From a virus: a DNA stretch of 64,000 nt. Below, in pieces: positions 4,197 through 64,000 of the stretch. The stretch lies in IMG/VR virus record IMGVR_UViG_3300029813_000275, positions 1-64,000 of that record. One strand, written 5' to 3'. The translations under genes were made by a program, and so were the position numbers. The stretch's first letter is position 1. The number at the start of each line of letters is the position of its first letter. The notes below the pieces were generated by a model that saw nothing but the letters and a program-made list of their open reading frames with translations, had not been told where the DNA came from and searched no databases.

Positions 4197-4528
4197 GTAT
4201 TGTTCATCCGGATTATTTATTGGATGAATTAACCTCGGTTCAGTTAAGCGAGTGGGAAGCATATGATAGATTGGATCCAATCGGAGAATGGAGAGCAGAT
4301 TTTAGAACAGCATCTTTGATTTCACAAGTTGTCAATATTGCCAGAACAATTTGGGGAAAAAGAAGTGTGGAAATGACTGCACCGTTGGATTATATGCCGG
4401 AATGGGATAGAAGTGAAGAAGAACCTAAAAGACAATCTGTTGAAGAAATGAAACAGATTCTTTTAGGGATAGCAGGAACTCAAAATGTCAGAAAGAAAAG
4501 AAGATTAGATAAACCAAAGAAATTATAA
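3774..4528 (+). CDS. tail assembly chaperone G-T fusion made by programmed -1 frameshift at 4139-4145
   Basis: The -1 frame is open from 4127 to 4528. It encodes ...LDELTSVQLSEWEAYDRLDPIGEWRADFRTASL..., the gpT-type motif (L..W.AY..L.P.G..R.D). A -1 shift from the G frame (mod 0) lands in this frame (mod 2). Confidence 0.75.
4139..4145 (+). promoter_or_regulatory. -1 ribosomal frameshift slippery heptamer A_AAA_AAC
   Basis: gtA AAA AAC in the zero frame of the G gene (X XXY YYZ form). Confidence 0.75.
4152..4166 (+). promoter_or_regulatory. GC-rich stem-loop, putative frameshift stimulator
   Basis: GGCGGC-cgg-GCCGCC perfect 6-bp GC stem, 6 nt downstream of the slippery heptamer, in an otherwise AT-rich genome. 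Confidence 0.6.
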
Positions 4529-10400: not shown

Positions 10401-11714
10401 GATGAAGTTCTGGCAATCGGGCATGTATCTAATGCTGCATTGGATGCAAGTCTTTATTTCAGTGCAACAGATTCAGATAATCCTTTTTGCAGGGTATTTG
10501 ATGGGGTGGATTCGTATGCAAAATGGAGCTTAGGAGATAAGACTACAATAAAAATGCAGTGGGGCAATCTTGCGAGTTTGGCAGGTTATGATATTGTGCC
10601 GGCGGATCCCGGATATGGATTTTATTCTGATAATGTTTTTTTAAAAGGAAAAATTGTAGCGACTTTAGGCGAAATTGGTGGTTGGACAATTAGTTCGACT
10701 GCTTTAACAGGCGGGGCAAACGCAACAACAATAGCATTAACTCCTGCGACCGGAATCCATATGGGAAACGCTGTTTTTGCAGATGCTCCATTTTCGGTCA
10801 CAAATGCCGGAGTTTTGAAAGCAATAAGCGGCACAATCGGTGGATGGACGCTTGCATCAGATGCTCTATATACAGGAACGAAATATATAGCTGATGATTG
10901 GAGTGCAACAGGAATCACACTTGCAAATGATGGGGCAATACATACACCTAATTTTTATGTTAATACCAATGGCGAAATAGGGTTAAGACAAGTTGAAAGT
11001 GTTTTGTTTAAAACAGACATTAATAATTTAGGGATAAAAATTGCAGGAGGACATATTTGGGAAAATGAAATTAATTCAGATATTGGATATATAACAATTA
11101 ATAATGAAGGTCATAATGGAACTATGGATCATTTTAGACAACTTCAAATATATAATGGGAAAGGGGCAATGTTGGCGGAATTTAGTGGGTATTATAATAA
11201 AGTTAAATCATATGTTCTTTTGGAAAGTTCTGTAAATATTATTGATGGATATGCTGCTTACTTCTTCAATGATGGTAACCAGTCCAGCAGATATGGTATA
11301 GGCATACAATATGGAAAGGATATTCGTGATGGAGTAGCAGATTATCCTATTAGATTTTATGATGGTGATGGTGGTTTATCAGGATATATACTATCAAACG
11401 ACACTGATTTAACTCTCACACATATATCAGATATTTCATTAAAAGAAAACATAAAAGATTATACTATCAATGGGCTTGATATTATTGATCAATTACAGTA
11501 CAGATCATTCAACTTGAAAAAGAATCCAGATAAGGATAGGATAGTCCATGGTTGGATAGCAGATGAAGTTGAAAAGTTTTTACCTGAAATGGTATCAGTG
11601 GATCCTGAAACAGGATTGAAAACGATCAGTCAAACAAGGCTGATTCCTGTTTTAGTAGCTTCTGTAAAGGAATTGAAAAAGAAGATAAAAATATTGGAAG
11701 CTCAAAAAAATTAA
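7440..11714 (+). CDS. distal tail / tail fibre protein with C-terminal S74 intramolecular chaperone domain
   Basis: 1424 aa following the TMP. The C-terminus HISDISLKENIKDY...IVHGWIADEVEKFLPEMV...LIPVLVASVKELKKKI matches the peptidase S74 (endosialidase chaperone) signature. Repeated IGGWT(I/L).S.AL motifs. Confidence 0.85.
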   Translation: MAHVLEYYHEYYDIGGTLHRVELLQDGYSGGSTHIKKSDAVPVRMRHTGSKTDFEKTIIQGQELVFSFRVARDDVDTFDTLFESDYKDYKVKYYVGEELEFEGYVKPENLSKQFSKNPPYVEITLSATDALADLKNILFGDGSIINDKLTILEILKYALTPIGITLDFQIQLGTYESTYMAATECALKEIVVDARRFFTEKTGKTEILSCHEVIEAALKDFSITFKQRKGKYQITNHNELNSYQFIFDWSTLTQQSRTATGNIVDMIGYKYDPGIEQQKIRPLKTVAITHKNKDLGEPLVGVDNWNNWVIDFYSHTVLAGNVLQLYSSGESYDDYIQYTAGFTKITENDYIKITFDEILHAFTGGGIPSIKIKIEITRPDTSTLPPVYFPCYGEWNTCESYLAPAFKITASGDYIIKISFIPDPYNIWDWTTATFWVKDMVFSKIINTTEEYDLSNITYDKHYRQTSGKGIEIFETETLLADTLQVSEIGALLANGGAANTASWNTYGHTEGIRILDIYARNILNNRYNYKNYLRAEISDRNNNIDFDKILTILSKNYVCISYDRNFKECLITVELIELLTTQQDYSLISEFSLDSVDGVPIKEGVNINVVTSTTTPYHNELGGLYGASPYNHLSAAAYTNVGNLASMAYQATASYYTAAQLNAGQLNNLYYTETELNAGQLNNLYYTETEINTWRAEVTQTEMGYLHGVASDVQTQITARAIIGADAANDRIATWTGATTIKGEPNLTFDGAVLTNKGHRYQQFSTEAGKTDWRLTLANEDADLAKIFNYDVGGAAFKNMVLGNTTKLLYLDLANTRIGINRSDPAYTFDINGTGRFVGNLYGDANVQHKDFTTGFQGTNWQITDAGNGELNNLLVRGGLTVYELILNRLHYQCGGLIIGAGGGKIKTIHVATQGSEQLEFEDPAGNSILPFTVGAIVMVQDFDLNRTTIVKKIVRQVASITGQVLTLTTTAGWVIGDDVGAFAYGDEVLAIGHVSNAALDASLYFSATDSDNPFCRVFDGVDSYAKWSLGDKTTIKMQWGNLASLAGYDIVPADPGYGFYSDNVFLKGKIVATLGEIGGWTISSTALTGGANATTIALTPATGIHMGNAVFADAPFSVTNAGVLKAISGTIGGWTLASDALYTGTKYIADDWSATGITLANDGAIHTPNFYVNTNGEIGLRQVESVLFKTDINNLGIKIAGGHIWENEINSDIGYITINNEGHNGTMDHFRQLQIYNGKGAMLAEFSGYYNKVKSYVLLESSVNIIDGYAAYFFNDGNQSSRYGIGIQYGKDIRDGVADYPIRFYDGDGGLSGYILSNDTDLTLTHISDISLKENIKDYTINGLDIIDQLQYRSFNLKKNPDKDRIVHGWIADEVEKFLPEMVSVDPETGLKTISQTRLIPVLVASVKELKKKIKILEAQKN
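9423..9512 (+). repeat. tandem 45-nt (15-aa) repeat LNAGQLNNLYYTETE x2 inside the tail fibre gene
   Basis: Two identical peptide units; the DNA copies differ at 11 of 45 positions, all synonymous. Confidence 0.9.
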
Positions 11715-12206: not shown

Positions 12207-12581
12207 ATGATTGTAAATTTAAAACACGAAATTCTCGGCATTGATGATAAGCCAATTATCAATCCTCAAACGAATCTACCAAGGACTCTGCAAAGTGTCA
12301 TTATCGGAGCATTATTGTTCCCAAAAGGCAGGCGTAATCCACAGACCGGTGCAATAGAACAACCGGAAGACACTGATAAAGAAAAGTTTGAAAAGTATGA
12401 ACTTTACAAAAGAGTGAAAGCTGTTAATGTTGACGTGAAAAATGCAGATACAACAATTGAACTTACAGCTGAAGAAATAAGTAAAATTAAAAAACTGATT
12501 CATGAAATTGAACCCCAGCTTATTATGGGTCAGTGCTGGGATATGTTGGAAATGGGATACACTAAAAAAGACAAGAAATGA
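12207..12581 (+). CDS. hypothetical protein
   Basis: ORF open from TTG at 12156, but ATG at 12207 (MIVNLKHE...) is more plausible; stop overlaps endolysin start. Confidence 0.5.
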   Translation: MIVNLKHEILGIDDKPIINPQTNLPRTLQSVIIGALLFPKGRRNPQTGAIEQPEDTDKEKFEKYELYKRVKAVNVDVKNADTTIELTAEEISKIKKLIHEIEPQLIMGQCWDMLEMGYTKKDKK

Positions 12582-13027
12582 GAATTATCAACATGATAGT
12601 AATACATTGTTCCGCAACAGAAGAAGGGAATGACTATTCGGTTGCGGATATTACCCGTTGGCACAGAAAGCGTGGATTTTTTACTATTGCGTATCATTTC
12701 CTTGTACATCCTAATGGAACGATAGACGGGGCAAAAGAAGGATGTAGACCGATAAGCCGGATCGGAGCGCATGCTAAAGGTAAAAATCTTCATTCAATAG
12801 GTATTTGTTATATTGGCGGTATGAAAGACGGGAAAGCATCAGATACCAGAACTGTGATACAAACACATTCTTTAAGAGGGCTTGTTAAGGCATTACAATC
12901 AATGTTTGTTGGAGCGGAGGCTGTGGGGCATAGAGACCTCAGCGTTGATCTAAATGGTGATGGTGTTATAACAAAAAGTGAATGGATGAAAGAATGTCCT
13001 TCTTTTGATGTAAAAACAGAATTATGA
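12578..13027 (+). CDS. N-acetylmuramoyl-L-alanine amidase (endolysin, Amidase_2/PGRP type)
   Basis: IVIHCSAT....DITRWHRKRGF..IAYHFLV..NG....GR....GAHAKG.N..SIGICYIGG, classic T7-lysozyme-like amidase motifs. Confidence 0.85.
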   Translation: MRIINMIVIHCSATEEGNDYSVADITRWHRKRGFFTIAYHFLVHPNGTIDGAKEGCRPISRIGAHAKGKNLHSIGICYIGGMKDGKASDTRTVIQTHSLRGLVKALQSMFVGAEAVGHRDLSVDLNGDGVITKSEWMKECPSFDVKTEL

Positions 13028-49031: not shown

Positions 49032-49547
49032 ATGAAAAGAACCAGATTTCAAAAATTTCCGAAGGATTCTGGTGTATATTCAATTACATCTAAGATAAAT
49101 AACAAACGTTATATCGGCAGCGCATTTGATCTCAAAAGAAGAAAACAAGGTCATTTGTATGCCCTGAGAAAAAGGCAACATGAAAATCCTCATTTACAAA
49201 ATCATGTTAATAAATATGGATTGGATGATTTACAATTTTTTATACTTGAATTTTGCCAAAAGGAAAAGTTGATTGAACGAGAACAATATTGGTATGATTT
49301 GATACAACCGGAATTTAATATATGTAAAGAAGCCAGAAGTGTTATGTTTGGAAGGAAACATACAATAGAAGCGAAACGAAAGATAGGTGAAAAAAATAAA
49401 GGTAATATACATTCAGAAGAGGCAAAACGAAGAATGAGTGAATCCCTTAAAGGAAAGAAAGGAAAGAAAGGGCCTAAAGGATTTAGAACAGTAAAACATT
49501 ATGCTTATGTTTATTTCTTTTCTGATTTTAATATTCTTAGAGCATGA
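49032..49547 (+). mobile_element. GIY-YIG homing endonuclease (Seg/I-TevI-like) with NUMOD3-type repeats
   Basis: SGVYSITSKINNKRYIGSA.DLKRR...H (GIY-(10)-YIG), REQYWYDL..PEFNI, then GRKHTIEAKRKIGEKNKG / HSEEAKRRMSESLKGKKG repeats. Sits directly upstream of the terminase genes. Confidence 0.8.
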
Positions 49548-50074
49548 AACGAACAAAATATTCAGATTATCTACTATTAAAAAGAACAAAGCCGGGAAAA
49601 TGGAATAATGACAGATGCCGCCAGGTCTTTGAATTGGCTTTGTTAGGTTTAATAGATAAAAAGATAGCACAGGCAATGGATGTAAGTGTTCAAACTATTG
49701 ATAATTGGAAGCGAAGACACCCTGAATTTTTAGAAGCAATGCGAGCTGGTAAGGATAAGGCTGATGCAAAAGTAGTAAAAGCATTATATGAAGTAGCTAT
49801 CGGATATAGTCATCCAGACGTACATGTTTCAAACTACAAAGGAGAAATAACAATAACCCCAATCACAAAACATTACCCCCCTAATCCTTATGCAGGGTAC
49901 AAATGGTTGACTATACGACAACGCAAAATATGGGCAGAAGTAAATAAATCGATCCCACCACCAGCTAATTTAACCCAAATTAATTTTAATATGTTTACAA
50001 AACAGGAAAAATTGGCATTGGAAAAAATAGGCATGATACAATTAATAGAACAAGGCAATATAAATAATGATTGA
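49544..50074 (+). CDS. terminase small subunit
   Basis: 176 aa immediately upstream of, and overlapping, the large terminase; HTH ...DKKIAQAMDVSVQTIDNWKRRHPEFLEAM typical of TerS. Confidence 0.65.
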   Translation: MKRTKYSDYLLLKRTKPGKWNNDRCRQVFELALLGLIDKKIAQAMDVSVQTIDNWKRRHPEFLEAMRAGKDKADAKVVKALYEVAIGYSHPDVHVSNYKGEITITPITKHYPPNPYAGYKWLTIRQRKIWAEVNKSIPPPANLTQINFNMFTKQEKLALEKIGMIQLIEQGNINND

Positions 50075-51599
50075 ACAACAAACACTGATACATGCTGATA
50101 AATCAAAATTAGAATGGGCGAAGGAAGCAATAAAAGACCCATTTGCGATTAGAAGAAGCATTAATGATGATTCATTATTTGAATTTATAAAGTATTTCTG
50201 GTCAATAGTGTCAACAGATAAATTTGAGACAAATTGGCATATTAATGAAGTTTTATGTAAAGAATTAGAAACAATAATACAACGTGTGGCAATAGACGCC
50301 CCAAAATTATATGATCTTATAATAAATATCCCTCCAGGCACTACTAAAACTATTGTATGTTCAATAATGTTTCCGGTATGGTGTTGGACAAAATGGTATT
50401 GGATGAAATTTATTACCGGTAGTTATTCATCAGATTTATCGTTAGAAAGTGCGGAATATAGCCGGGATATAATAAGAAGTAATAGTTTTAAAGCAATATA
50501 CCCGGAATTAGCTATTAAAGAAGATAAAGATGCAAAAGGAAATTTTAAAGTAGTTAAAAAAGAACAAACATTTCCAGGGCGGGAATTTCGCATAATACAA
50601 GGAGGGAATCGATTCAGTACTTCTGTAGGTGCAAAGGTGACAGGTTTCCATGGACATGTTATAATAATGGATGATCCACTGAATCCGGAACAAGCGGTTA
50701 GTGAAAAAGAATTAGCAACAGCAAATCGGTTTATAGGACAAACATTATCTACCCGAAAAACAAACAAAGCAGTAACGCCTACTATATTAATAATGCAACG
50801 TTTGCATCAGGATGATCCAAGTGGGCACATGTTAAATAAAAAGAAAAAGAAAATTCGTCATATTAGCTTACCGGGTGAAATACGTAATTATCGGGAACAG
50901 GTGTATCCACAAGAATTGATTAAGTATTATAAAAACGACTTATTGGATCCGGTTCGTATGGATTGGAAAGTATTGGAAGACATGGAAGCCGATCTGGGAC
51001 AATACGGTTATGCCGGACAAGTAGGACAGAAACCAACACCACCCGGCGGTGGTATGTTCAAAGTGGATCATTTTAATATAATTAATACTTTACCTGCTCC
51101 AATTAACTTTGTTCAGACTGTTCGGTATTGGGATAAGGCCGGAAGTGAGGGCACAGGAGCATTCACAGTCGGTGTGAAAATAAGTAAACTGCAAAATGGT
51201 CATTATATTATTGAAGATGTTCGGCGGGGGCAATGGGCAACCGAGGAACGGGAACAAATCATAAAACAAACAGCCATTGCAGATGGGGGAAATGTTCAAA
51301 TAGGCATTGAACAGGAACCCGGTTCAGGGGGTAAGGAATCAGCAGAAGGAACAATTCGTAATCTGGCAGGATTCAGTTGTTTTGCTGAACGCCCGACTGG
51401 AGATAAGGAATTCCGGGCTGACCCTTTTTCGGTACAGGTAAATAATGGAAATGTTATGTTGTTACATGGTGATTGGAATCATGAATTTGTGGAAGAATAT
51501 CGTAATTTTCCAGTTAGTACGTATAAGGATCAGGTAGATGCCGGCTCAGGAGCTTTTAACAAACTAACAACAAAACGAATTGCAAGACGGATAACATAA
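50067..51599 (+). CDS. terminase large subunit
   Basis: 510 aa; NIPPGTTKT (Walker A-like), HVIIMDDPLNPE (Walker B), C-terminal RNaseH-like nuclease region (YWDKAGSEG...EQEPGSGGK...). Confidence 0.85.
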   Translation: MIEQQTLIHADKSKLEWAKEAIKDPFAIRRSINDDSLFEFIKYFWSIVSTDKFETNWHINEVLCKELETIIQRVAIDAPKLYDLIINIPPGTTKTIVCSIMFPVWCWTKWYWMKFITGSYSSDLSLESAEYSRDIIRSNSFKAIYPELAIKEDKDAKGNFKVVKKEQTFPGREFRIIQGGNRFSTSVGAKVTGFHGHVIIMDDPLNPEQAVSEKELATANRFIGQTLSTRKTNKAVTPTILIMQRLHQDDPSGHMLNKKKKKIRHISLPGEIRNYREQVYPQELIKYYKNDLLDPVRMDWKVLEDMEADLGQYGYAGQVGQKPTPPGGGMFKVDHFNIINTLPAPINFVQTVRYWDKAGSEGTGAFTVGVKISKLQNGHYIIEDVRRGQWATEEREQIIKQTAIADGGNVQIGIEQEPGSGGKESAEGTIRNLAGFSCFAERPTGDKEFRADPFSVQVNNGNVMLLHGDWNHEFVEEYRNFPVSTYKDQVDAGSGAFNKLTTKRIARRIT

Positions 51600-53880: not shown

Positions 53881-55278
53881 ATGCCTGATAAAAACAAAAT
53901 AAGTGGAAATACAATACAAGTATTGAGCGCATTGGTATCACGTGCTGTACTTGCAGGGAGACTTGGACAACAATTTGGCGGTGACCGGGATATGTATCAG
54001 GCACTGGGTTATCCGCTTATAATTGAGTATAAAGATTATTTTGCACGGTATACCCGGCAGGATATAGCAAAGGCAATTATTGACCGCCCTGTAAAAGTTA
54101 CATGGCGGGGGGATGTGGAAATTATTGAATCGGATGATGATAAAGAAACAGCTTTGGAAAAGGCATGGAAAGAATTGGATGAGGCATTGGGATTGAAATC
54201 ACGATTTGTACGATTGGATAAATTATCAGGTATTGGTACATATGGGATATTGTTATTGGGATTGGATGATGTAAAAAATAAAGAAGATTTTATAAAGCCA
54301 GTGTTTGGAGGCCAAAGGAAATTATTATATGTAAAACCGTTCGGGCAGGATAATGCAACAATCACTGCATGGGAATCCGATACAAATAATCCACGGTATG
54401 CACAACCTGTTAAATATGATATTGTGATAACTGATTCAGGTTCTAATGTCAGTTCCCAGATTAGCGTACATCATAGCAGGGTTATTCATGTGGCAGATGA
54501 GATATTGGAAAATGAAACAGAAGGAGCCCCCCGATTAGAATGTGTGTATAATCGTTTAATGGATTTGGAAAAAGTGGTTGGTGGTGATGCTGAAATGTTT
54601 TGGCGAAGTGCGCGTCCGGGATTTGAAGGAAAAGTAGATAAGGATTTTCAGATGACCCCGAAGATGATAGAAGATTTAAAAGAACAATTGGATGAGTATG
54701 AACATAATCTTCGCCGGTTTCTCATAAATGAAGGGGTTGATATAAACGCATTGATACAACAAATTGCCGATCCGAAAAATCATGTTGATATACAAATACA
54801 AATGATTGCAGCAGTAAAAGGTATTCCGAAACGGATACTTACAGGCAGTGAGCGTGGAGAATTGTCAAGCAGTCAGGATAAAGAGGAGTGGATGTCGTTT
54901 GTTCAATTACGGCGTGAGGAGTATGCTGAACCAAAAATAATACGGCCGTTTGTTGACCGTTGTATTGAATATAAGGTATTACCAAAGCCTGCGGAATCAT
55001 ATTCGGTCAAATGGCAGGATTTGTTTGCACCAAGTGAGAAAGAACGTGTTGAAATTGGTAAAGGGCGTTCTACGGCGTTGAAGGAATATTCGATGAATCC
55101 GATGGCAGAATCCATTGTACCACCTGAAGCATTCCTGAAATGGTTTCTTGGCCTGGATAAAGATGTCGTTAAAATGATAGAAAAAATGAGGGATGCAGTC
55201 ATGTTGGAAGAACAACAACAACAGGCAACAGAAGAAGAAGAACAAATAATTGAAGAAGAACAAATAGAACAAGGATAA
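53881..55278 (+). CDS. portal protein (DUF1073-like)
   Basis: 465 aa; size, position before the Mu-F-like gene, N-terminal ...LGYPLIIEYKDYFARYTRQDIAKAIIDRPV... pattern, and acidic Q/E-rich C-terminus. Confidence 0.8.
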   Translation: MPDKNKISGNTIQVLSALVSRAVLAGRLGQQFGGDRDMYQALGYPLIIEYKDYFARYTRQDIAKAIIDRPVKVTWRGDVEIIESDDDKETALEKAWKELDEALGLKSRFVRLDKLSGIGTYGILLLGLDDVKNKEDFIKPVFGGQRKLLYVKPFGQDNATITAWESDTNNPRYAQPVKYDIVITDSGSNVSSQISVHHSRVIHVADEILENETEGAPRLECVYNRLMDLEKVVGGDAEMFWRSARPGFEGKVDKDFQMTPKMIEDLKEQLDEYEHNLRRFLINEGVDINALIQQIADPKNHVDIQIQMIAAVKGIPKRILTGSERGELSSSQDKEEWMSFVQLRREEYAEPKIIRPFVDRCIEYKVLPKPAESYSVKWQDLFAPSEKERVEIGKGRSTALKEYSMNPMAESIVPPEAFLKWFLGLDKDVVKMIEKMRDAVMLEEQQQQATEEEEQIIEEEQIEQG

Positions 55279-55280
55279 TT

Positions 55281-56237
55281 ATGTTTCATAGTTTATTAAA
55301 TAGTAGAGTAATATCAATTCATGATCATTCAATTACGGTTTACAATAACTATGATCCAACCCGGACAACTGTATTACGAAATGCTTTTGCAAGGGAAATG
55401 AATCGTAGATTCCGGCAATTGACGCAGGTGATACGTCGGGCGGTGGTTGAGGAGGATTGTTTTGGATTGCAACCGGGTTTTTATCAGTTGGCTTCACCCG
55501 GCAGGCAGGCATTTGCTTTTCCACGTAGTGCAGATAAAGTAAGTGGATTTATGACATGGCTACAAGGACAAGTTGATCGTGGTATTCTGGAAATACGGGA
55601 ATTGGCACAGGTTGGTGTTGGTGTAGAAGGGGCATGGACAAATAAATATGTGTTTGATTCGTATAAACGGGGCGTAATCCGGGCACGTTATGAGTTGCAG
55701 AAAGCCGGGTTTGATGTACCAACAATTCAACAGACTGGTGGAATAGAAATTAGTATGTCCACGCCGTTTCATCTGGATCGGTTGGGATTATTATATACAC
55801 GGGTTTATAGCGGGTTAAAAGGTATAACAGCAGCAATGGATACTCAAATCAGCCGGATATTGGCGCAAGGGATTGCTGATGGTGATGGCCCACGGTTACT
55901 TGCCCGGAAAATGATCGGCACTATTAATGGAGCGGGGATGGGTGATTTAGCCATTACTGATACATTGGGTAGATTCATACCGGCCCAACGGCGTGCTACA
56001 ATGCTGGCACGCACAGAAATAATTCGGGCACATCACCAAGCTACTATTCAGGAATATCGTAACTGGGCTGTTGAAGAAGTGATAGTAAAAGCAGAATGGA
56101 TGTCAGCGGGTGACGACCGGGCGTGTAATCGTTGTTTGGATAGGGATGGAAGTAAATTTACATTAGATCAGATTGAAAAAGAAATACCGTTGCATCCAAA
56201 TTGCCGGTGTTGTGCTTTGCCTTATAAAATGAAATAA
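55281..56237 (+). CDS. Mu F-like / SPP1 gp7-like minor head (head morphogenesis) protein
   Basis: ...RTEIIRAHHQATIQEY...WMSAGDDRACNRC..DG......PLHPNCRCC, canonical Phage_Mu_F C-terminal signature. Confidence 0.85.
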   Translation: MFHSLLNSRVISIHDHSITVYNNYDPTRTTVLRNAFAREMNRRFRQLTQVIRRAVVEEDCFGLQPGFYQLASPGRQAFAFPRSADKVSGFMTWLQGQVDRGILEIRELAQVGVGVEGAWTNKYVFDSYKRGVIRARYELQKAGFDVPTIQQTGGIEISMSTPFHLDRLGLLYTRVYSGLKGITAAMDTQISRILAQGIADGDGPRLLARKMIGTINGAGMGDLAITDTLGRFIPAQRRATMLARTEIIRAHHQATIQEYRNWAVEEVIVKAEWMSAGDDRACNRCLDRDGSKFTLDQIEKEIPLHPNCRCCALPYKMK

Positions 56238-56254
56238 AATAGGAGGATAATGTA

Positions 56255-56380
56255 ATGAAAAAATTTTGGAATAAATTTGGAGATGATTGGTTTATGATTA
56301 AACTATATCTCAGTTCTTGTTTTGTATTTGGAGTTATATTATTGAGTATAGCAGTTTTGGTAATATTAAAAATATTGTAA
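56255..56380 (+). CDS. 41-aa membrane peptide (below ORF-track cutoff)
   Basis: Strong SD AGGAGG 5 nt (ataat) upstream of the ATG; MKKFWNKFGDDWFMIKLYLSSCFVFGVILLSIAVLVILKIL. Confidence 0.5.
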   Translation: MKKFWNKFGDDWFMIKLYLSSCFVFGVILLSIAVLVILKIL

Positions 56381-56382
56381 AA

Positions 56383-56868
56383 ATGCCTTGGACAATAACA
56401 GATGTGGAGCGTCATAAGCATGGATTAACCGATGCTCAAAAGCGACAATGGGTACGAATAGCCAATTCAGCACTTGCAAAATGTCAAAGAGAAGGAGGAC
56501 GTAATTGTGAGGCTTCCGCTATCCGGCAGGCTAATGGAGTTGTGGGACATAGTATTTCTTTTGAGAATACACAGAAAACAATTGAAAAATTAATTACTTA
56601 TGTAGATGCCGGACATGGAGAACCCATTGAAGATTGGGAATATTTAATTCATCATGTTGAAGTGGTTGAGGGTGAGGAAGAATTGCATCATTGTTTTTTA
56701 TTAGATCATCTTGGAAACAAATATGAAATTGATCATATAACAGATGAAGAAGGCGATCAACGGCATTATATTGTGGGATTAGTAGAGGATCAGGATGTAT
56801 ATTGGAGTGATCAGGAGGCAATTGAAGATGGGCAAGATGTTCCTTGTCCAGCAAGACAATTAGGATAA
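56383..56868 (+). CDS. ChaB-like N-terminal domain protein with acidic C-terminus
   Basis: Start at MPWTITDVERHKHGLTDAQKRQWVRIANSALAKC....EASAIRQANGVV, resembling the ChaB fold pattern; the upstream part of the 56317 ORF overlaps the small peptide gene. Confidence 0.4.
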   Translation: MPWTITDVERHKHGLTDAQKRQWVRIANSALAKCQREGGRNCEASAIRQANGVVGHSISFENTQKTIEKLITYVDAGHGEPIEDWEYLIHHVEVVEGEEELHHCFLLDHLGNKYEIDHITDEEGDQRHYIVGLVEDQDVYWSDQEAIEDGQDVPCPARQLG

Positions 56869-56869
56869 A

Positions 56870-57631
56870 ATGAGAACACCAGCAAAAATAGGATCGTTTT
56901 ATTTCACAATAGGTAGAGAATCAGAATTCTCTAAAAAGGATTTTTTACAGATTCTTAATTCTGCTATTGAGGATATAGTAAATAGTTGTACGCATCCTGG
57001 AATTTTATTATCAGGTGGGGTAGATAGTTCATTATTAGCAATAATTGCTACAAAATATTGTCTTAATATTCCTTGTTTTGTTGTAGGGGACAATATTATG
57101 AATCCGGATGTGCAGGCTGCAATGCAATTGGCAGAGGAAAAAAAATTGAATTTATATGTTCATCTTCTTAATCCGACAGAAATATCACGTATTCAAAAGG
57201 AAACAAAAGCAATTTATTCTAATATTTATGAAGGAGATGATTGTGTATTTGCTGCTTTAGAATTTGCTTCCCCATTTGTTACCGATTTAATTGCCACGGA
57301 TGGAATTGATGAATTGATGGGCGGATACTGGGGGCATCGGGACAGAAAAAGGTTTCCTGATATAAAAGATGCTTTTAAACATTTTTGGGATGAATTGGAA
57401 GAAAAACATTTAACTCCGATGAATAGATCAGCTGAATGCCACGGCTTGGATCTTATTTTTATATACTTACTGCCTGAAATTATTGAACAGCTTTCAAGAA
57501 TCTCATTAAAAAATCGAATCAGAGAAAATGTTAGTAAAGCCGTTTGGAAAGAGATTGCTCTGATGGCAGGAGTGCCTTCATGGATTATAGAAAGAAAAAA
57601 ACAAGGATTTGTTGATGCTTTTAAAGAATAA
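56870..57631 (+). CDS. asparagine synthase-like PP-loop ATP pyrophosphatase lacking a glutaminase domain
   Basis: HPGILLSGGVDSSLLAIIA (AsnB SGGLDSS signature) and TDGIDELMGGYW (AsnB GEG.DE.fgGY motif); only 253 aa, no N-terminal Ntn Cys. Confidence 0.7.
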   Translation: MRTPAKIGSFYFTIGRESEFSKKDFLQILNSAIEDIVNSCTHPGILLSGGVDSSLLAIIATKYCLNIPCFVVGDNIMNPDVQAAMQLAEEKKLNLYVHLLNPTEISRIQKETKAIYSNIYEGDDCVFAALEFASPFVTDLIATDGIDELMGGYWGHRDRKRFPDIKDAFKHFWDELEEKHLTPMNRSAECHGLDLIFIYLLPEIIEQLSRISLKNRIRENVSKAVWKEIALMAGVPSWIIERKKQGFVDAFKE

Positions 57632-57636
57632 ATAAT

Positions 57637-59178
57637 ATGTCATATTTGGAAAAAGTACTTTTTGGGATTAATAAAAGGAAAAAAGGAGAATCTTGTATTT
57701 TCATCAGAGAAGTACAAATCAACGAGAATTATACTATTCGTAATGAAATGCATCAAGGCAGGAAACATATCGTAGTACCCGTTGTAATGATGGTAGAAGG
57801 TGTGCATAAAGGAAGTGCAGGGCATTTACTACATTTAGCAGAAGATTTAGGGCGATTTCCAGAAGCATGGAATGGTATTCCGGTTACTATTCAGCACCCG
57901 GAAGAGGATGGACATAATGTTTCCGCTAATTCACCTGATTTGATTGACGCCCAAACAATAGGACGAATTTATAACACTCATATGGATGAAGGGAAGTTGA
58001 AGGCTGAAGCATGGTTAGATGAAGAACGATTGCGGGAGCAAAGCGCTATTGCATTAGCAGCAATACAACAACAACGTGTGTTGGAAGTGAGTGTTGGGGT
58101 GTTTACTGAGGAAGAAAACGTTCCAGGCATTTGGAATGGAGAGCAATATGAAGCCATAGCTAGAAACCATCGCCCAGATCATTTGGCATTATTGCCTGGT
58201 GGGAAAGGGGCTTGTTCATGGGAAGATGGTTGTGGAATTCGATTAAATAAGAAAGGAGGTAACAGTGTGAAAAAGACAGATGATGAATTAATTATTGATG
58301 ATAAGAAATTATCAGAGATAATGAAAAGTCTGAATAATGAAAATTTGGCAGTTATTCCAATTAATGTAAATGAACAGGGATTGAGATCACTTGTCAGTAC
58401 TATTCAGGCAAAACTTGATGTCATGGATTCAGATACTAAAGTACATTTCTTACAGGAGGTGTATGAAGATTTTTTTGTCTATGAAATCAGGGGAAGAAGT
58501 GAAGGTTCTGTATTATATAAACGAACATATCAGGTAAATACTGATGAGTCTGTTGAATTTACTGGAGAACCGGTTGAAGTCAGACGTAAAATAGAATACG
58601 TCACAATGGAAAGTTCTGGATTGACCAGAACGAAATTTAATAATTTAAAGAAAGGAGTAGTAACAATGAGTGAAAAAAAAGAAGGCGCTCCCTGTAAAGT
58701 AACTGAACTTATCAATCACAAGTTGACAAAGTTCACTGAAGATAACAGAGAGTGGCTGGAAACTTTGGAAGAAGGTCAATTGGATACATTATTTCCAAAT
58801 GAACCGGAAGCCAAAAAAGAGGATCCTCCGCAAATAAATGCGGAGCAAGTAAAACAGGTGGTAAGGGAATTATTTTCCAAACAGGAAGAATATATTGACC
58901 TGATGCCTGAAAATATGCGAGATTCAACGCGTGCTGGATTAAAACTTCATAAAGAACAGCGCGAAAAGATGATTAAGGGAGTTCTTGATAACGTAAAAGA
59001 CGTTTGGACTGAGGATGAACTGAAATCAATGGATGCAAATACTTTAAATAAAGTATTTAATTCAATAAAAAAAGAGGAAATAACTGATTATTCCTTACTT
59101 GGTACGGGTGTTTCGGGCGGAAAAGGACAAACACCTTTATATCCGGGCGGAATAGAAATTGAAGAAACTAAAAAATAA
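57637..59178 (+). CDS. DUF2213-type prohead protease/scaffold fusion protein
   Basis: N-terminal HIVVPVVMM.EGV....LH.AE.L.....WNGIPVTIQHP...SVGVF.....PG.WNGEQYEAIARNHRPDHLALLP.GKGACS matches DUF2213; C-terminal half is charged/coiled (scaffold-like); directly upstream of decoration and capsid genes. Confidence 0.65.
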   Translation: MSYLEKVLFGINKRKKGESCIFIREVQINENYTIRNEMHQGRKHIVVPVVMMVEGVHKGSAGHLLHLAEDLGRFPEAWNGIPVTIQHPEEDGHNVSANSPDLIDAQTIGRIYNTHMDEGKLKAEAWLDEERLREQSAIALAAIQQQRVLEVSVGVFTEEENVPGIWNGEQYEAIARNHRPDHLALLPGGKGACSWEDGCGIRLNKKGGNSVKKTDDELIIDDKKLSEIMKSLNNENLAVIPINVNEQGLRSLVSTIQAKLDVMDSDTKVHFLQEVYEDFFVYEIRGRSEGSVLYKRTYQVNTDESVEFTGEPVEVRRKIEYVTMESSGLTRTKFNNLKKGVVTMSEKKEGAPCKVTELINHKLTKFTEDNREWLETLEEGQLDTLFPNEPEAKKEDPPQINAEQVKQVVRELFSKQEEYIDLMPENMRDSTRAGLKLHKEQREKMIKGVLDNVKDVWTEDELKSMDANTLNKVFNSIKKEEITDYSLLGTGVSGGKGQTPLYPGGIEIEETKK

Positions 59179-59195: not shown

Positions 59196-59705
59196 ATGGC
59201 TAATACAATTAAGTTAAAAAAATACTTGGATATTATTGAAGAATATGGTGCTGAAGCCGCAATAACTCCAGGTATGTTGCTTGAACTTAACAGTAGTGGT
59301 AATGTTCAAGTACATTCAACAGCGGGAGGTAATGTCCTTCCGATGTTTGCTCTTGAAGATGAGCTCCAAGGCAATGATATTGATGATGCTTATGTTGCCG
59401 ATGATAAAGTACAGGTGTGGGTTGCTGTTCGGGGGGAATGGGTGTATGCTATTTTAGCAGATGGACAAAATGTCAGCGTCGGTGATTTTCTTGAATCGGC
59501 AGGCAGCGGTCTTCTCCAAAAACATGAACCTGATGAATATAATGAGAGCGCATCAATCGGAGGTATTTATACTAACCAGATCGTTGGTGTTGCACTTGAA
59601 GCTATGGATTTATCTACTTCGAGTGGAGAAGAGTCCAGTTTAGGGCTTGGATCAAGTATCGAAACCGTTGGATATAACAGACGTATTAAAATAAGAATTA
59701 AATAA
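59196..59705 (+). CDS. head decoration protein (DUF2190-like)
   Basis: 169 aa; strong SD AAGGAGG; ...ITPGMLLELNSSGNVQVHS....P.FALED.......V.VWVA.RGEWVYAIL...VSVGDFLESAGSG pattern; position just before the MCP. Confidence 0.55.
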   Translation: MANTIKLKKYLDIIEEYGAEAAITPGMLLELNSSGNVQVHSTAGGNVLPMFALEDELQGNDIDDAYVADDKVQVWVAVRGEWVYAILADGQNVSVGDFLESAGSGLLQKHEPDEYNESASIGGIYTNQIVGVALEAMDLSTSSGEESSLGLGSSIETVGYNRRIKIRIK

Positions 59706-59727: not shown

Positions 59728-60828
59728 ATGGAAAATGTACAAGTTGATTTATTAGGAATAAACGGACAAGTTCAGGGTGATGTGGCAGCCCAGTTATTGG
59801 GTAATGAAATAAGCCTTGGTACTATGCGCCCATTTATAGGGGATGATGGTAGGGCTTATGTTACTATATACAATGGGGGTGATCAAAAAAACCCAGCCAG
59901 TTATGTGACAAATCCTATCAATACTAATGCAACACTTCGCAGGGATGAATGGAAATTGTTGGATGATGCTTTATTGGAAGTTTCCCGGCAAAGACTCGGT
60001 GGAGTTCAGGATTTGATTGATAAAGGTTTAGTTTATAATCTTGGCAATGCAATGGGAACGACCGTACTCGAATGGCATGATGTGAGTGATGCAATGGAAG
60101 CTGTTGTTACAATGGATGGAGTGACAAGGGCTGCGGGTGACCGCCCGGTATTTAAACATAATTATTTGCCGATTCCAATTATCCATAGTGATTATGAGAT
60201 TAATGCACGTGTATTGGCTGCAAGCCGGAGTTTAGGGAATCCTTTGGATACGACTTCTGCTGAAAGAGCTGCCCGTAGGGTAAATGAAAAACTGGAAGCC
60301 ATGTTATTTACTAACACGACTTACAGTTTTGGTGAAAAAGATGATCGTAATCTTAACACTATTTATAGTTATATTAATCATCCGGATCGTAGCCAGGTTG
60401 CTTTAACCGGGGCATGGACAGGATTAACAGGTGCACAAATAGTTGCGGATGTTTTGACTAATATGGTACAAACAAGTATTGATGCGCTTCATTATGGGCC
60501 TTGGATGTTGTATATTCCAACAGCTTATCAAACAGTGATAGATGCAGATTATGTTGTTGCAGCTCCGCAAAATACGATTCGTGAACGTATTTTGAAGATT
60601 GCTGGTATTACCGGGATTAAAACAATAGATACATTGCCTGATGGTAATGTTTTATTGGTTCAAATGACCAGTGACGTTGTTCGTTTGGTACGTGGTATGG
60701 GTCTTCAGAGTGTTGAATGGCAAACTGAAGGAAAATTCATAACCAAATATAAGGTACTTACTATTCAGGTTCCTCAGATTCGTTCTGATCAGAATTTAAA
60801 AAGTGGTATTGTTCATGGTTCTGCTTAA
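59728..60828 (+). CDS. major capsid protein (HK97 fold, encapsulin/linocin-M18-like family)
   Basis: 366 aa; strong SD AAAGGAGG; ...NATLRRDEWKLLDDALLEVSRQRLGGVQDLIDKGLVYNLGNAMGTTVLEW..VSD... pattern of encapsulin-like capsid proteins. Confidence 0.85.
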   Translation: MENVQVDLLGINGQVQGDVAAQLLGNEISLGTMRPFIGDDGRAYVTIYNGGDQKNPASYVTNPINTNATLRRDEWKLLDDALLEVSRQRLGGVQDLIDKGLVYNLGNAMGTTVLEWHDVSDAMEAVVTMDGVTRAAGDRPVFKHNYLPIPIIHSDYEINARVLAASRSLGNPLDTTSAERAARRVNEKLEAMLFTNTTYSFGEKDDRNLNTIYSYINHPDRSQVALTGAWTGLTGAQIVADVLTNMVQTSIDALHYGPWMLYIPTAYQTVIDADYVVAAPQNTIRERILKIAGITGIKTIDTLPDGNVLLVQMTSDVVRLVRGMGLQSVEWQTEGKFITKYKVLTIQVPQIRSDQNLKSGIVHGSA

Positions 60829-60872: not shown

Positions 60873-61235
60873 ATGGAACGTACAAAAACAACTGATAATA
60901 CAGTATCTGAAAAAATCAGATGGAAAAAAATTGGTGGCGGATCCCTTCGGTTATTAATCGATGGAAAACGGCGTATAATTAAGCCTAATGAGAAGTTCAC
61001 GGCCACCCCAGATGAAGTGCCACAGGCATTTCGGGATGTAGTTGTGCCTTTGGATACTATTCCCGGAACTCCACCAACCCCTGTAATAACAACGGGAGTT
61101 CAAACTGTTTATGTAGCAAAGCCACGAGGAAAAAGTGGAGATTGGGACGTAGTGGATCCAAATGGAAAAGTTCTTAACGAAAAAGCTCTTAAAAAAGAAG
61201 TAGCTGATAAGTTGATTGAAGATTTAGCAAAGTGA
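60873..61235 (+). CDS. hypothetical protein
   Basis: 120-aa ORF; overlaps start of next gene. Confidence 0.55.
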   Translation: MERTKTTDNTVSEKIRWKKIGGGSLRLLIDGKRRIIKPNEKFTATPDEVPQAFRDVVVPLDTIPGTPPTPVITTGVQTVYVAKPRGKSGDWDVVDPNGKVLNEKALKKEVADKLIEDLAK

Positions 61236-61930
61236 TTTGGAAGGTCCCTCGCATATGGGAAGGGGGAGATGTATGGATAATGGGAGGAGGGCCCTCAGTA
61301 CCAAAGCAGTTCGATATTCCCGATCGGGTTGTTCAGAATGTAGTTAAAGGCGCTTTTTCTCCTGCTGCATACTCTCCTTATATGTCTGCACTTCATGATA
61401 AGCATGTAATTGGTATTAATGTAGCTTATTTGATTGGGGATTGGATAGATATGGTATTTTTTGGTGATAAAGGATTCTTTTTGAAGCACCAACTTGCGTT
61501 ATCTAAATTTCCAGGATTAAAAGTTTCCTGCTATCCCGGAGCAAATGACTTGAATTGGGTTAAATACGTTGTACGGGATAAAAAGCATTCACGGGGTATA
61601 AGTTCAGATTCAAGAACAGTCAGTTGGAATGGTAATTCAGGAGCTGCTGCAATCAGTGTAGCTGCACATGCCGGGGCGAAGCGGATTATATTGTTGGGAT
61701 TTGATATGAAAGTGGGTGAAAAGGATATACAACACTGGCATGATTTATATGGACGTTTTGCAGCTAAAGATCCAAGGAAAAGAAAACGCATGGCATTTTA
61801 CAAGCATCTGGCGGGTTTTCCACAAATTGCTAAAGATGCAAAACACATGGGTATTGAAATTTTGAATGCCTGCTCTGATAGTGCAATTGAATGTTTAAGA
61901 AAAGTAACTGTTAAAGAAATTTTACAATGA
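61232..61930 (+). CDS. MptE/DUF115-like protein (putative nucleotide-sugar transferase of the Maf/sialyltransferase-like class)
   Basis: GTG start; VWIMGGGPSV....VIGINVAY.......D....NGNSGAAAISVAAHAGAKRIILLGFDM......HW pattern resembles DUF115. Confidence 0.4.
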   Translation: MIWKVPRIWEGGDVWIMGGGPSVPKQFDIPDRVVQNVVKGAFSPAAYSPYMSALHDKHVIGINVAYLIGDWIDMVFFGDKGFFLKHQLALSKFPGLKVSCYPGANDLNWVKYVVRDKKHSRGISSDSRTVSWNGNSGAAAISVAAHAGAKRIILLGFDMKVGEKDIQHWHDLYGRFAAKDPRKRKRMAFYKHLAGFPQIAKDAKHMGIEILNACSDSAIECLRKVTVKEILQ

Positions 61931-63096
61931 AACAAATAGGAGTTGGGGAATTAATTTTAGGTAAAGAAGAAAAGAAATTGCTAAATCAGGTGATTAATAG
62001 TAATCGACTGTCCTATGGAAAATTTACAAAGAAATTTGAGGAATTATTTGCTAATGAACATGATTCAAAATACGGCGTTTTTTGCAATAGTGGAACTTCT
62101 GCTTTATATATGGCTTTAGCTGCATTGAAAGAAAAATATCAGTGGAAAAGACATGATGAAATTATTGTTCCTGCCACTACTTTTGTTGCTACAATTAATA
62201 TAATATTGCTCAATGATTTAATTCCAGTATTGGTGGATGTGGATAAAGAAACATATAATATTAATACAAAATTAATTGAGAATAAGATAACAAAAAGAAC
62301 AAAAGGAATTATTCCAGTTCATTTATTTGGATTACCAGCGGATATGGATTCAATTCTTGAAATTGCAAAATGTAATAATCTGAAAGTAATTGAAGATTCT
62401 TGTGAATGCATGTTTGCAAAATATAAGAATAAAAAAGTAGGTTCATTTGGCGAGATAGGATGTTTTTCTACTTATGTTGCCCATTTTTTGGTAACTGGGA
62501 TTGGAGGATTTTGTATTTCTGATGATGAGGAAATTATAAAAATACTTAGGAGTCTGATGAATCATGGAAGAGATTCAATATATATTACAATTGATGACGA
62601 TAAAAATATTCCTATTAAGAAACTGCAAGAAGTAATTGCCAAACGATTTAATTTTACTCGCGTCGGATTTAATTTTAAAGCAACTGAATTGGAGGCAGCA
62701 ATTGGTTTAGGACAATTCAAACAAAGAAATAAAATAATCAGTCGCCGTAAGGAAATAGCACATAAATTTATACAAGGATTGAAAAGATTAAATGTTCATA
62801 TGCAATCACCTTGTATCCCAAATGATCGAGATCATAATTTTATGATGTTTCCAATTGTATTGAAAACAATATGTAAAGAAAATTTAATAAGATTTCTTGA
62901 AAAAAATGATATTGAAACCAGGGATATGCTACCTCTTCTTGATCAACCTGCATATAAAGGGATGTTTAATATTGAAGATTTTCCTGTTTCACAATGGATT
63001 AAGAAATATGGGTTTTATATAGGTTGTCATCAATATATTACAGACGGTGAGGTGAAATATATCATTGAAAAATTTTATGAATTTTTTAGAAAATGA
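61927..63096 (+). CDS. DegT/DnrJ/EryC1-family PLP/PMP enzyme with His in place of the Schiff-base Lys (ColD-type sugar 3-dehydratase signature)
   Basis: 389 aa; NSGTSALYMAL, IPVHLFG, DSCE. At the F-S-x-x-x-x-K position the sequence is CFSTYVAHFLVTGIGG (His186). Downstream ...DDEEIIKILRSLMNHGR. Confidence 0.7.
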   Translation: MKQIGVGELILGKEEKKLLNQVINSNRLSYGKFTKKFEELFANEHDSKYGVFCNSGTSALYMALAALKEKYQWKRHDEIIVPATTFVATINIILLNDLIPVLVDVDKETYNINTKLIENKITKRTKGIIPVHLFGLPADMDSILEIAKCNNLKVIEDSCECMFAKYKNKKVGSFGEIGCFSTYVAHFLVTGIGGFCISDDEEIIKILRSLMNHGRDSIYITIDDDKNIPIKKLQEVIAKRFNFTRVGFNFKATELEAAIGLGQFKQRNKIISRRKEIAHKFIQGLKRLNVHMQSPCIPNDRDHNFMMFPIVLKTICKENLIRFLEKNDIETRDMLPLLDQPAYKGMFNIEDFPVSQWIKKYGFYIGCHQYITDGEVKYIIEKFYEFFRK

Positions 63097-64000
63097 AGAA
63101 AGCATTAATTACGGGTATTACAGGGCAAGATGGATCATATCTTGCTGAACTTTTGTTGAAAAAAGAATATGAAGTTCATGGATTAGTAAGAAGAACTTCT
63201 CAGGATAATCATCATAATATTAGGCATTTTGAAAATGATGTAAAATTTCATTGTGGAGATATGACAGATTCAGTAAGTATTAATAATATTGTTGCAAAAG
63301 TTATGCCTGATGAAATCTACAATTTTGCAGCCATGAGTCAAGTGAGAGTTTCATATGATTCTCCTGTTTCTACATTTGATATTAATACTTTAGGGTTTCT
63401 AAGAGTGATAGAAGCGGTGAGAAGAATAAAACCTGATACTAAATTGTACCAAGCCTGTTCTTCTGAAATGTTCGGTAAAGTACAGGAGACGCCTCAAACT
63501 GAAATAACCTCATTTTATCCACGATCGCCGTATGGAGCCAGTAAAGCTGCCGCCTTTTATTTAGGGCGCGCTTATCGTGAAGGATACGGGTTAAAAATTT
63601 ATAATGGAATTTTATTTAATCATGAATCACCTCGCAGAGGAGATACTTTTTTAAGTCAAAAAGTTGTAAAAGCCGCTGTAAAAATTAAAAAAGGTTTACA
63701 AGATAAATTAACACTTGGGAATCTTGATGCTAAACGGGATTGGGGGTATGCTAAAGAATACATGGAATGGGTTTATAAAATTGTACAGGAAGAACCAAAT
63801 GATTATTTGATTTGCACAGGAGAAACACATTCAGTAAGAGAATGGGTTGAATTAACTTTTAAACTTTTAGGATTAGACTGGAAAAAATATGTGGATTTTG
63901 ATGAAAATTTAAAACGACCGGCAGAAGTTGATATTTTGTTGGGGGATTTTTCCAAGTCAAAAAATGATTTAGGATTTAATCCACAAGTGAAATTTAAAGA
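63093..64000 (+). CDS. gmd: GDP-mannose 4,6-dehydratase (3' end cut by window edge)
   Basis: Not in ORF track (no stop in window). Translation: MKKALITGITGQDGSYLAELLLKKEYEVHGLVRRTS...YNFAAMSQV...CSSEMFGKVQETPQTE...PRSPYGASKAAAFY...ILFNHESPRRG, classic Gmd motifs. ATGA overlap with the preceding gene. Confidence 0.92.
   Translation, partial: MKKALITGITGQDGSYLAELLLKKEYEVHGLVRRTSQDNHHNIRHFENDVKFHCGDMTDSVSINNIVAKVMPDEIYNFAAMSQVRVSYDSPVSTFDINTLGFLRVIEAVRRIKPDTKLYQACSSEMFGKVQETPQTEITSFYPRSPYGASKAAAFYLGRAYREGYGLKIYNGILFNHESPRRGDTFLSQKVVKAAVKIKKGLQDKLTLGNLDAKRDWGYAKEYMEWVYKIVQEEPNDYLICTGETHSVREWVELTFKLLGLDWKKYVDFDENLKRPAEVDILLGDFSKSKNDLGFNPQVKFK

Follow-up and report, generated by a model that had tools for sequence, protein, structure and literature searches.

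The 64,000-nt stretch of DNA analysed here, hereafter the window, comprises positions 1 to 64,000 of the record IMGVR_UViG_3300029813_000275, an environmental virus, and carries an island of sugar-tailoring genes in its late operon, between the gene for the major capsid protein (MCP) and the gene for a DUF4054 head-tail adaptor-like protein. The island is built from a conserved frame, consisting of a small protein (orf120), a DUF115/MptE-like transferase and, in most relatives, a sulfotransferase of the type using 3'-phosphoadenosine-5'-phosphosulfate (PAPS), and from a hypervariable interior. This architecture characterises a large clade of uncultivated tailed phages and is not peculiar to this genome, the dideoxyhexose genes of the window being merely this phage's filling of a general slot. 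That the island directs the late, cytoplasmic O-glycosylation of virion proteins is the interpretation we favour, and we consider it an evenly balanced proposition.

A conserved frame around a variable interior

A search of IMG/VR with the capsid protein provided 80 loci whose MCPs are 60-73% identical to that of the window. The frame genes were counted in the 65 loci that extend at least 1.5 kb beyond the capsid gene, and the interior was described from the 41 loci that include both borders. In 64 of the 65 loci, orf120 and the DUF115 gene lie directly downstream of the MCP gene, the 65th having the DUF115 gene only, and the distance from the MCP gene to the DUF115 gene has a median of 451 nt. 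At the other border, a sulfotransferase gene is present in 34 of the 41 loci (first set with both borders) and, in the loci that have it, its end precedes the DUF4054 gene by a median of 14 nt (n = 41, enlarged locus set). The interval between the DUF115 gene and the adaptor gene ranges from 12 bp to 8 kb, the minimal form being that of the relative L011, in which the two genes abut with 12 bp between them and the interior is empty.

Grouping of the 202 interior proteins gave 50 clusters, of which those open to annotation comprise glycosyltransferases (GT2, GT10, GT11, GT29-like, GT32, GT47-like, GT92 and GT9-like), S-adenosylmethionine (SAM) methyltransferases (FkbM, TylF and others) and extra sulfotransferases, as well as a range of nucleotide-sugar enzymes: Gmd, GFS-like reductases, 4,6-dehydratases of the PseB/CapD type, DegT enzymes, UDP-glucose dehydrogenase, UDP-GlcNAc 2-epimerase, a formyltransferase and cupin isomerases. 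In two phages, an APS-kinase-like protein (APS_kinase, 7e-16; cluster C16) is encoded beside the sulfotransferase (L010, 8671-9093; L061), where it would ensure a local supply of PAPS. The interior content is nearly uncorrelated with the capsid phylogeny: for locus pairs with less than 85% MCP identity, the Jaccard index averages ~0.1, and half of these pairs or more have no interior gene in common.

The interior is also characterised by what it does not encode. No polytopic membrane protein was detected among the 202 interior proteins of the 41 loci, each of them containing at most one hydrophobic 19-residue segment, and the Pfam-scanned representatives of the interior clusters include neither members of the Wzx, Wzy, WecA and Gtr-type (GtrA/B/C) families nor a lipid-carrier initiating enzyme. 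The original prediction, made from the letters of the window, had distinguished this cassette from the classic seroconversion cassettes, and this distinction holds, in that no flippase, polymerase or Gtr-type membrane protein occurs among the 202 proteins. In the nearest cultured relative by capsid, the Brevundimonas phage MaInes, whose annotated MCP is 38% identical to that of the window (tblastn), the MCP gene is followed by one unrelated small open reading frame (ORF) and then by the homologous adaptor gene (32% identity to the window adaptor), with no sugar genes. The phages in GenBank comprise no DNA-level relative of the window, cyanophages matching the Gmd segment only.

The island in the window

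Gene identities in the window were assigned by profile matches to Pfam, PHROG and NCBIfam. The 5' border of the island is the MCP gene (59728-60828; DUF6260 7e-18, phrog_771 2e-23), directly followed by orf120 (60873-61235), a conserved small protein of no known family, the DUF115/MptE-like transferase (61232-61930; phrog_4603 8e-28, with a sub-threshold match to Pfam MptE-like), a predicted ColD/E1-type sugar 3-dehydratase of the DegT family (61927-63096; DegT_DnrJ_EryC1 4e-89) and Gmd, whose 3' end is cut by the window edge (63093-64000; GDP_Man_Dehyd 1e-113, TIGR01472 5e-111). At the other extremity of the window lie a family 2 glycosyltransferase (GT2) fragment, whose 5' end is cut by the edge (2-514; Glyco_trans_2_3 4e-8, Glycos_transf_2 2e-7), the PAPS-type sulfotransferase, which is the 3' member of the island (511-1206; Sulfotransfer_3 1.6e-6), and the DUF4054 adaptor-like protein that forms the 3' border (1206-1580; DUF4054 1.5e-4, phrog_302 5e-5), after which, on the window start side, the neck proteins are encoded.

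The succession of a 120-aa ORF, a DUF115-like protein, a ColD-like enzyme and Gmd after the capsid gene had been read from the sequence beforehand, and all four are found at these places, with family matches far beyond chance; the GT2 and the sulfotransferase announced at 1-1206, leading into the adaptor gene, are likewise present. The co-orientation and coupling of these genes with the late genes is also confirmed, since all of them lie on the + strand with start/stop overlaps of 1-4 nt: the overlaps are of 4 nt at 61232/61235, 61927/61930, 63093/63096 and 511/514, and of 1 nt at 1206, between the sulfotransferase and the adaptor genes. No terminator-like site separates the island from the structural genes, in a scan that is weak; promoter and terminator scans of the window gave counts at chance level and are uninformative on the timing of expression. 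The GC content of the ColD-like gene is 0.29, compared to ~0.40 for orf120, the DUF115, MCP and decoration genes and to a genome average of 0.33, a contrast consistent with different histories for the interior and the frame.

The ORF map and the skew profile indicate that the window is a nearly complete phage genome cut within the late operon. It had been proposed in this context that the genes at 64000 and at 1 form one cluster, and synteny bears this out, since related contigs carry an unbroken path from the MCP to the DUF4054 gene: in the 41 relatives with both borders, the order on one contig is MCP, orf120, DUF115, interior, (GT2), sulfotransferase, DUF4054 and tail genes. In L082 and L083, Gmd is directly followed by a 417-aa GT2 and then by the sulfotransferase. 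The window GT2 fragment corresponds to residues 247-416 of the L082 GT2, with 55% identity; stand-alone GT2 homologues of ~200 aa exist too, and the best GT2 homologue is 65% identical. Alignment to the L082 Gmd indicates that at least ~14 codons of Gmd are missing at the window edge. On the basis of the gene order in L082 and L083, the gap between 64000 and 1 would therefore hold the 3' end of Gmd, of 14 codons or more, together with the N-terminal part of the GT2. Its length would be at least ~0.15-0.8 kb, according to the type of GT2 (200 aa or 417 aa), and it may contain further genes, for example a ColC-type reductase. The gap stays open, as no exact match to the last 60 bases was found in IMG/VR or in JGI metagenomes, and an exact-protein look-up with the ColD-like protein returned no match.

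Dideoxyhexose enzymes and sulfotransferase

The ColD-like enzyme gives full-length matches to E1 (3bcx) and ColD (2gms, 3gr9). The His residue in its segment STYVAHFLVTGIGG aligns with the Schiff-base Lys of the perosamine synthase 3bn1 ('cfstyvaHflvtgigg' in the query against 'tfsffgnKiittgegg' in 3bn1), and the same His is found in the L002 orthologue. Since replacement of the Lys that binds pyridoxal 5'-phosphate (PLP) by His is the hallmark of the 3-dehydratases ColD and E1, the window enzyme is predicted to be of the ColD/E1 type. The exact sugar that it would produce is uncertain: among PDB entries, the perosamine synthase scores 174 bits, E1 161 bits and ColD 150 bits, and the best NCBIfam match is RfbH (E1), with 232 bits against a cut-off of 423.

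Gmd reaches 371 bits against TIGR01472 for a protein cut at residue 302, the equivalog cut-off being 415, and covers profile positions 1-326 of 332 of Pfam GDP_Man_Dehyd; the L038 orthologue is 83% identical and has 316 aa, and the YxxxK and NHESPRRG stretches in the Gmd translation are taken here as Gmd motifs. As in the GDP-colitose pathway (Gmd, ColD, ColC), Gmd adjoins a DegT-family enzyme with a His in place of the PLP Lys. The likeness has its limits, since the sequenced part contains no ColC, ColD is by overall score no nearer to the enzyme than perosamine synthase and E1/RfbH are, and the genes belong to a phage head operon instead of an O-antigen locus. A full set is present in L002, with a GFS/ColC-like short-chain dehydrogenase/reductase (SDR) directly upstream of the ColD-like gene, Gmd and a GT11 transferase.

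The sulfotransferase matches PF13469 (Sulfotransfer_3) with 29.0 bits, for a cut-off of 27. Its TGxxRSG and RRxxxDxxxS motifs are invariant in 29 sequences (T10, G11, R14, S15 and G16; R124, R125, D129 and S133), and correspond to the 5'-phosphosulfate-binding (5'-PSB) and 3'-phosphate-binding (3'-PB) motifs for PAPS.

The DUF115-like transferase and orf120

The DUF115-like protein of the window has 232 aa and 1051 homologues in metagenomes. Comparison of its sequence profile with the PDB gave nothing significant, and only fold comparison was productive. An AlphaFold2 model (mean predicted local distance difference test, pLDDT, 89.5; predicted TM-score, pTM, 0.88) was compared to the PDB with Foldseek, which retrieved the sialyltransferase CstII of Campylobacter (1.5e-4, TM ~0.5), the archaeal MptE HPPK 8sd5 (2e-3) and the flagellin glycosyltransferase Maf 5mu5 (5e-3, TMq 0.59). 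According to this model, the protein shares its fold with Maf, MptE-HPPK and the GT42 sialyltransferases; the same fold occurs in many uncharacterised viral proteins named MptE-like or DUF115 (BFVD matches). The motifs GGGPS, WNxNSG and GFDM are invariant, GGGPS and LLGFDM being (nearly) invariant in 46 sequences, and the profile pairs GGGPS and LLGFDM with IFGAGPSI and LGGMDF of 8sd5 at a non-significant E-value of 0.47. CstII (1ro7, 1ro8), a GT42 enzyme, is the best structural match to the model, and its N-terminal G-x-G-P-S turn, which we take to be nucleotide-binding, recalls the start of the DUF115-like protein; the two proteins have only 15% sequence identity, however, and CstII acts on lipooligosaccharide and not on protein.

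The DUF115-like transferase is enlarged to 425-448 aa in L010 (2295-3569), L050 (11699-12988) and L076 (9531-10874). The added part is a SAM methyltransferase domain in L010 and L050, and lacks a family match in L076. A distant homologue (22.5% identity, E 5e-7) is also encoded by the Pseudomonas phage PAJU2 (L081; AP009624.1, 7780-8349, ORF010), directly after the putative head-tail adaptor, where it is annotated as 'structural protein'. Distant DUF115 homologues likewise occur in Caulobacter and Brevundimonas jumbo phages. A search of the literature retrieved nothing relevant on DUF115 in combination with phage, nor on sulfotransferase in combination with capsid.

With 104 database homologues, orf120 is a real gene. 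Its alignment reveals two small domains connected by a hypervariable linker rich in Pro, Thr and Glu, and it has no match in Pfam, PHROG or NCBIfam. No kinship was detectable with the 120-aa ORF that occupies the same place in MaInes.

Candidate acceptors on virion proteins

Two virion proteins encoded in the window bear Ser-rich segments which, as judged from their composition, are candidate glycan acceptors. The 169-aa head decoration-like protein (59196-59705, + strand; phrog_766 'head decoration', 5e-12) has a Ser-rich acidic loop, DLSTSSGEESSLGLGSS, at residues ~137-153, which is kept in 31 homologues as D(L/M)SxSSGxxSS and is the sole strongly Ser-rich segment among the 99 window ORFs taken as genes. 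The major tail (tube) protein (3285-3716, + strand; phrog_158 'major tail protein', 3e-15) terminates in the Ser/Gly-rich sequence VNTGSGSSA; in 37 homologues, all of which have a Ser/Gly-rich tail, the last 10 residues contain 57% S+G+T compared to 30% elsewhere. The alignment of the decoration loop reveals no visible link between the Ser-rich loop and the presence of the sulfotransferase.

Proposed function and alternative explanations

In the model that we propose, the genes of the island would be transcribed together with the structural genes, and their products would act in the cytoplasm, independently of any lipid carrier. A first sugar, taken from a donor made by the host, would be attached by the DUF115 enzyme to Ser/Thr residues of virion proteins, with the decoration loop and the tail tube tail as candidate sites. 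Variable transferases would then lengthen this first sugar, and methyl and sulfate groups would cap the chain, the interior of this particular phage contributing a GDP-activated 3,6-dideoxyhexose through Gmd and the ColD-type dehydratase, plus the GT2. Particles would thereby acquire a glycan coat specific to the strain. For its donor, the DUF115 enzyme would have to rely on the host, because its gene persists in a locus that has no interior at all (L011) and because neither a nonulosonic-acid synthase nor a CMP-sugar synthetase was seen in the islands. That this donor is a CMP-ulosonic acid such as CMP-Kdo is a speculation by analogy with a Maf enzyme described as accepting CMP-Kdo (PMC11339370).

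Four observations favour a cytoplasmic modification of a soluble, co-produced acceptor, here taken to be virion proteins, over the synthesis of an envelope polysaccharide. Neither a polytopic membrane protein among the interior proteins nor a lipid-carrier initiating enzyme among the scanned cluster representatives was detected; the conserved genes form part of the head-tail operon, with overlaps into structural genes; the DUF115 fold is that of the flagellin O-glycosyltransferase Maf; and two abundant virion proteins bear conserved, Ser-rich and probably flexible segments. The proposal of virion proteins as acceptors relies on where the genes lie, on the constancy of orf120 and DUF115, on the missing export machinery and on these two segments.

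To our knowledge, the glycosylation of phage particles has been documented only for mycobacteriophages, where it alters antibody recognition. In Che8, Corndog (cluster O) and Myrna, phage transferases and an O-methyltransferase glycosylate capsid and tail tube subunits at their C-termini (Freeman et al. 2023, in the form in which PMC11256854, PMC11600133 and PMC12619734 cite it). The two systems resemble each other in that glycosyltransferases and O-methyltransferases are encoded by the phage, and in that the acceptors in mycobacteriophages are capsid and tail tube C-termini, the tail tube protein of the window having a conserved Ser/Gly-rich C-terminal tail; the glycans have been demonstrated in mycobacteriophages, whereas they are proposed here from the genes. 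The present phages nevertheless belong to another lineage with another host, their core transferase has a DUF115/sialyltransferase fold, and they add a near-constant PAPS sulfotransferase (sometimes with an APS kinase), nucleotide-sugar pathways of their own and a hypervariable island. The location differs as well, the island lying between the MCP and adaptor genes, whereas the transferases of Che8-type F1 phages lie near the right genome end (PMC11256854). The novelty that had been tentatively suggested for the cassette is therefore partial: virion glycosylation as such has this mycobacteriophage precedent, and what is new lies in the enzymes, in the sulfation and in the architecture of the island.

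A second point of comparison is provided by the Maf enzymes, which O-glycosylate surface Ser/Thr residues of flagellin (PMC11339370), and which in the flagellin glycosylation islands of Aeromonas are found alongside strain-variable extending transferases (PMC7874193). As in these islands, a gene for a DUF115-fold transferase lies beside the gene for a polymerising structural protein and is accompanied by strain-variable genes for sugar synthesis and extending transferases, and the reaction would, for the phage island, equally take place in the cytoplasm, without lipid carrier, on surface Ser/Thr residues. Unlike Maf (~630 aa), the phage protein comprises the 232-aa catalytic core only and scores under the Pfam cut-off; in addition, the phage islands have no visible genes for nonulosonic-acid synthesis and their acceptor would be a virion protein. 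We know of no flagellin island of which sulfation is a feature. Among eukaryotic viruses, the giant chloroviruses and mimiviruses glycosylate capsid or fibril proteins with cytoplasmic transferases and sugar-nucleotide enzymes that they encode themselves, and the DUF115 fold is also found in proteins of Mimiviridae sp. ChoanoV1. The enzymes and acceptors of the giant viruses differ from those considered here, and we are aware of no island architecture that the two have in common.

The island could alternatively serve to remodel the host envelope late in infection (lipopolysaccharide, capsule or S-layer glycans), against superinfection or the adsorption of progeny to debris, the products being exported by flippases and ligases of the host; this we regard as unlikely. 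Colitose, fucose, O-methyl and sulfate groups are indeed typical of O-antigens and capsules, and the variability of the interior is like that of O-antigen loci. Gmd is a common auxiliary gene of cyanophages, being the sole part of the region with DNA-level matches there, and phage sugar genes have classically been tied to serotype conversion and DNA glucosylation (a review, in the terms in which PMC12619734 cites it). However, none of the 202 interior proteins is polytopic and no lipid-carrier initiating enzyme occurs in the Pfam-scanned representatives, while the conserved members, which overlap structural genes, are found between the MCP and adaptor genes in 64 of the 65 loci, an arrangement unusual for a host-directed moron. 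No context of lysogeny was seen either: the related contigs are all phage-sized and none lies inside a bacterial chromosome. Less probable still is that the MCP-adaptor interval is a permissive insertion hot spot for unrelated sugar genes, having neither a common acceptor nor a role in the particle. The mosaic interior, swapped even among fairly close relatives, the second variable site between the MuF-like and protease genes described below, and the GC content of the ColD-like gene (0.29 against 0.40 for the flanking structural genes) would fit such a hot spot. Yet orf120, DUF115 and the sulfotransferase are fixed in position and in sequence, with invariant motifs of catalytic type, nearly every insert that can be annotated fits the single theme of glycan synthesis and tailoring, and two phages have DUF115 joined to methyltransferase domains in one protein.

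Glycosyltransferases of phages are also able to attach diverse glycans to DNA (Pyle et al. 2024, in the citation given by PMC12619734), and the island might in principle act on phage DNA, as a hypermodification, instead of protein. This is highly improbable, since the genes are part of the head operon and not of the replication module, the early DNA-modification genes are of the 7-deazaguanine type, and no thymidylate-synthase-like hydroxymethylase is found among the matches listed (25 of 37 families).

Several points nonetheless weigh against the O-glycosylation of virion proteins. This activity is deduced from genes, no glycoprotein having been observed directly, and only the operon structure speaks for a late expression of the island. 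The acceptor sites were guessed from amino-acid composition, and Ser/Gly-rich tails are common as linkers. The DUF115-like protein scores 19.3 bits (E 1e-3) against Pfam PF01973 (MptE-like), below the gathering threshold of 34.6; the best clade member tested, that of L050, reaches 29.9 bits, and a few database homologues have a precomputed PF01973 match. The catalytic residues of CstII or Maf could not be mapped onto the model of the protein, and no nonulosonic-acid synthase or CMP-sugar synthetase was seen in the islands, so that a Maf-like enzyme would depend on the host for its donor. The annotation of the PAJU2 homologue as a structural protein fits a role tied to the virion, yet a non-enzymatic role of DUF115 is then possible. 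orf120 has no recognisable fold or function, its AlphaFold2 model (pLDDT 73) having no structural neighbour at E<0.2, and the sequenced part of the window contains no ColC-type reductase, the SDR needed to complete colitose. Finally, no host can be assigned. A scan of genome collections found the island on phage-sized contigs only, never embedded in a bacterial chromosome. Ten GTDB contigs (L084-L093) are binned in metagenome-assembled genomes of Bacteroidales, Mariniphaga, Omnitrophota, Hyphomicrobiales, Spirochaetota, Paceibacterota, Deltaproteobacteria, Izemoplasma and Bathyarchaeia; covering at least nine unrelated lineages, including an archaeon, these bins look like binning artefacts and were rejected as host assignments.

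Implications

If virion proteins are indeed the acceptors, glycosylation of the virion would be a common trait of environmental phages, given the more than 1000 metagenome homologues of the conserved transferase. It would employ a transferase fold hitherto associated with flagellin and with the sialylation of lipooligosaccharide, and would include sulfation. A function would thereby be proposed for uncharacterised viral DUF115/MptE-like proteins, and evolution by cassette exchange would imply a strong selection on the particle surface, which might be driven by adhesion to matrices or mucus, by the stability of the particle or by the evasion of grazers, of proteases or of surface defences of the host. 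More tentatively, and somewhat short of even confidence, the whole clade of environmental, siphovirus-like phages could carry a programmable, strain-specific glycan coat on capsid and tail, built by a Maf-like system of protein O-glycosylation fixed in the head operon and including O-methylated and sulfated sugars, with an interior exchanged in the manner of an O-antigen locus. Such a coat would amount to phage 'serotypes' under diversifying selection and to the first sulfated glycans on a phage particle. The island would in addition represent a natural toolbox of soluble enzymes for the glyco-engineering of phage particles.

A second variable site and the rest of the window

Between the gene for the MuF-like head morphogenesis protein (55281-56237, + strand) and that for the DUF2213 protease/scaffold (57637-59178, + strand), the head module contains a second variable site (56317-57631, + strand), which encodes a 183-aa ORF and, at 56870-57631, an asparagine-synthase-like PP-loop enzyme (Asn_synthase 4e-18). 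In relatives, this MuF-to-protease interval ranges from 31 bp to 5.9 kb: that of L002 (4124-5331) contains the same AsnB-like gene, with 65% identity, and that of L044 (2304-7912) contains a GT2, a GT11, two DegT enzymes, a GNAT protein and a split transketolase. Asparagine-synthase-like amidotransferases are known in sugar-tailoring pathways (PseA, WbpG), and the second site may serve the same glycan system as the island.

Over the window, late genes lie on the + strand at 49-64 kb and 1-13 kb, and early genes on the - strand between them. A GIY-YIG/NUMOD3 homing-endonuclease-like gene (49032-49547) is followed by a helix-turn-helix protein, possibly the small terminase, and then by the large terminase (50067-51599, + strand); the portal gene lies at 53881-55278 (+ strand). 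On the window start side, the chaperones and the tape measure protein (4528-7437, + strand) precede a 1424-aa distal tail protein (7440-11714) with a C-terminal Peptidase_S74 domain, which in tail spikes of the endosialidase type is the intramolecular chaperone, after which an Amidase_2 endolysin is encoded at 12578-13027. The early region (~13.5-48 kb, - strand) includes genes for GTP cyclohydrolase I, a QueD-like 6-pyruvoyl-tetrahydropterin synthase (PTPS) and QueC, whose combination suggests a pathway for 7-deazaguanine modification of DNA. Other early genes encode a PAPS-reductase-domain protein, a ParB_N domain, an N6/N4 DNA methylase, a family A DNA polymerase, RecA, a SNF2 helicase and a sigma-70 region 2 protein.

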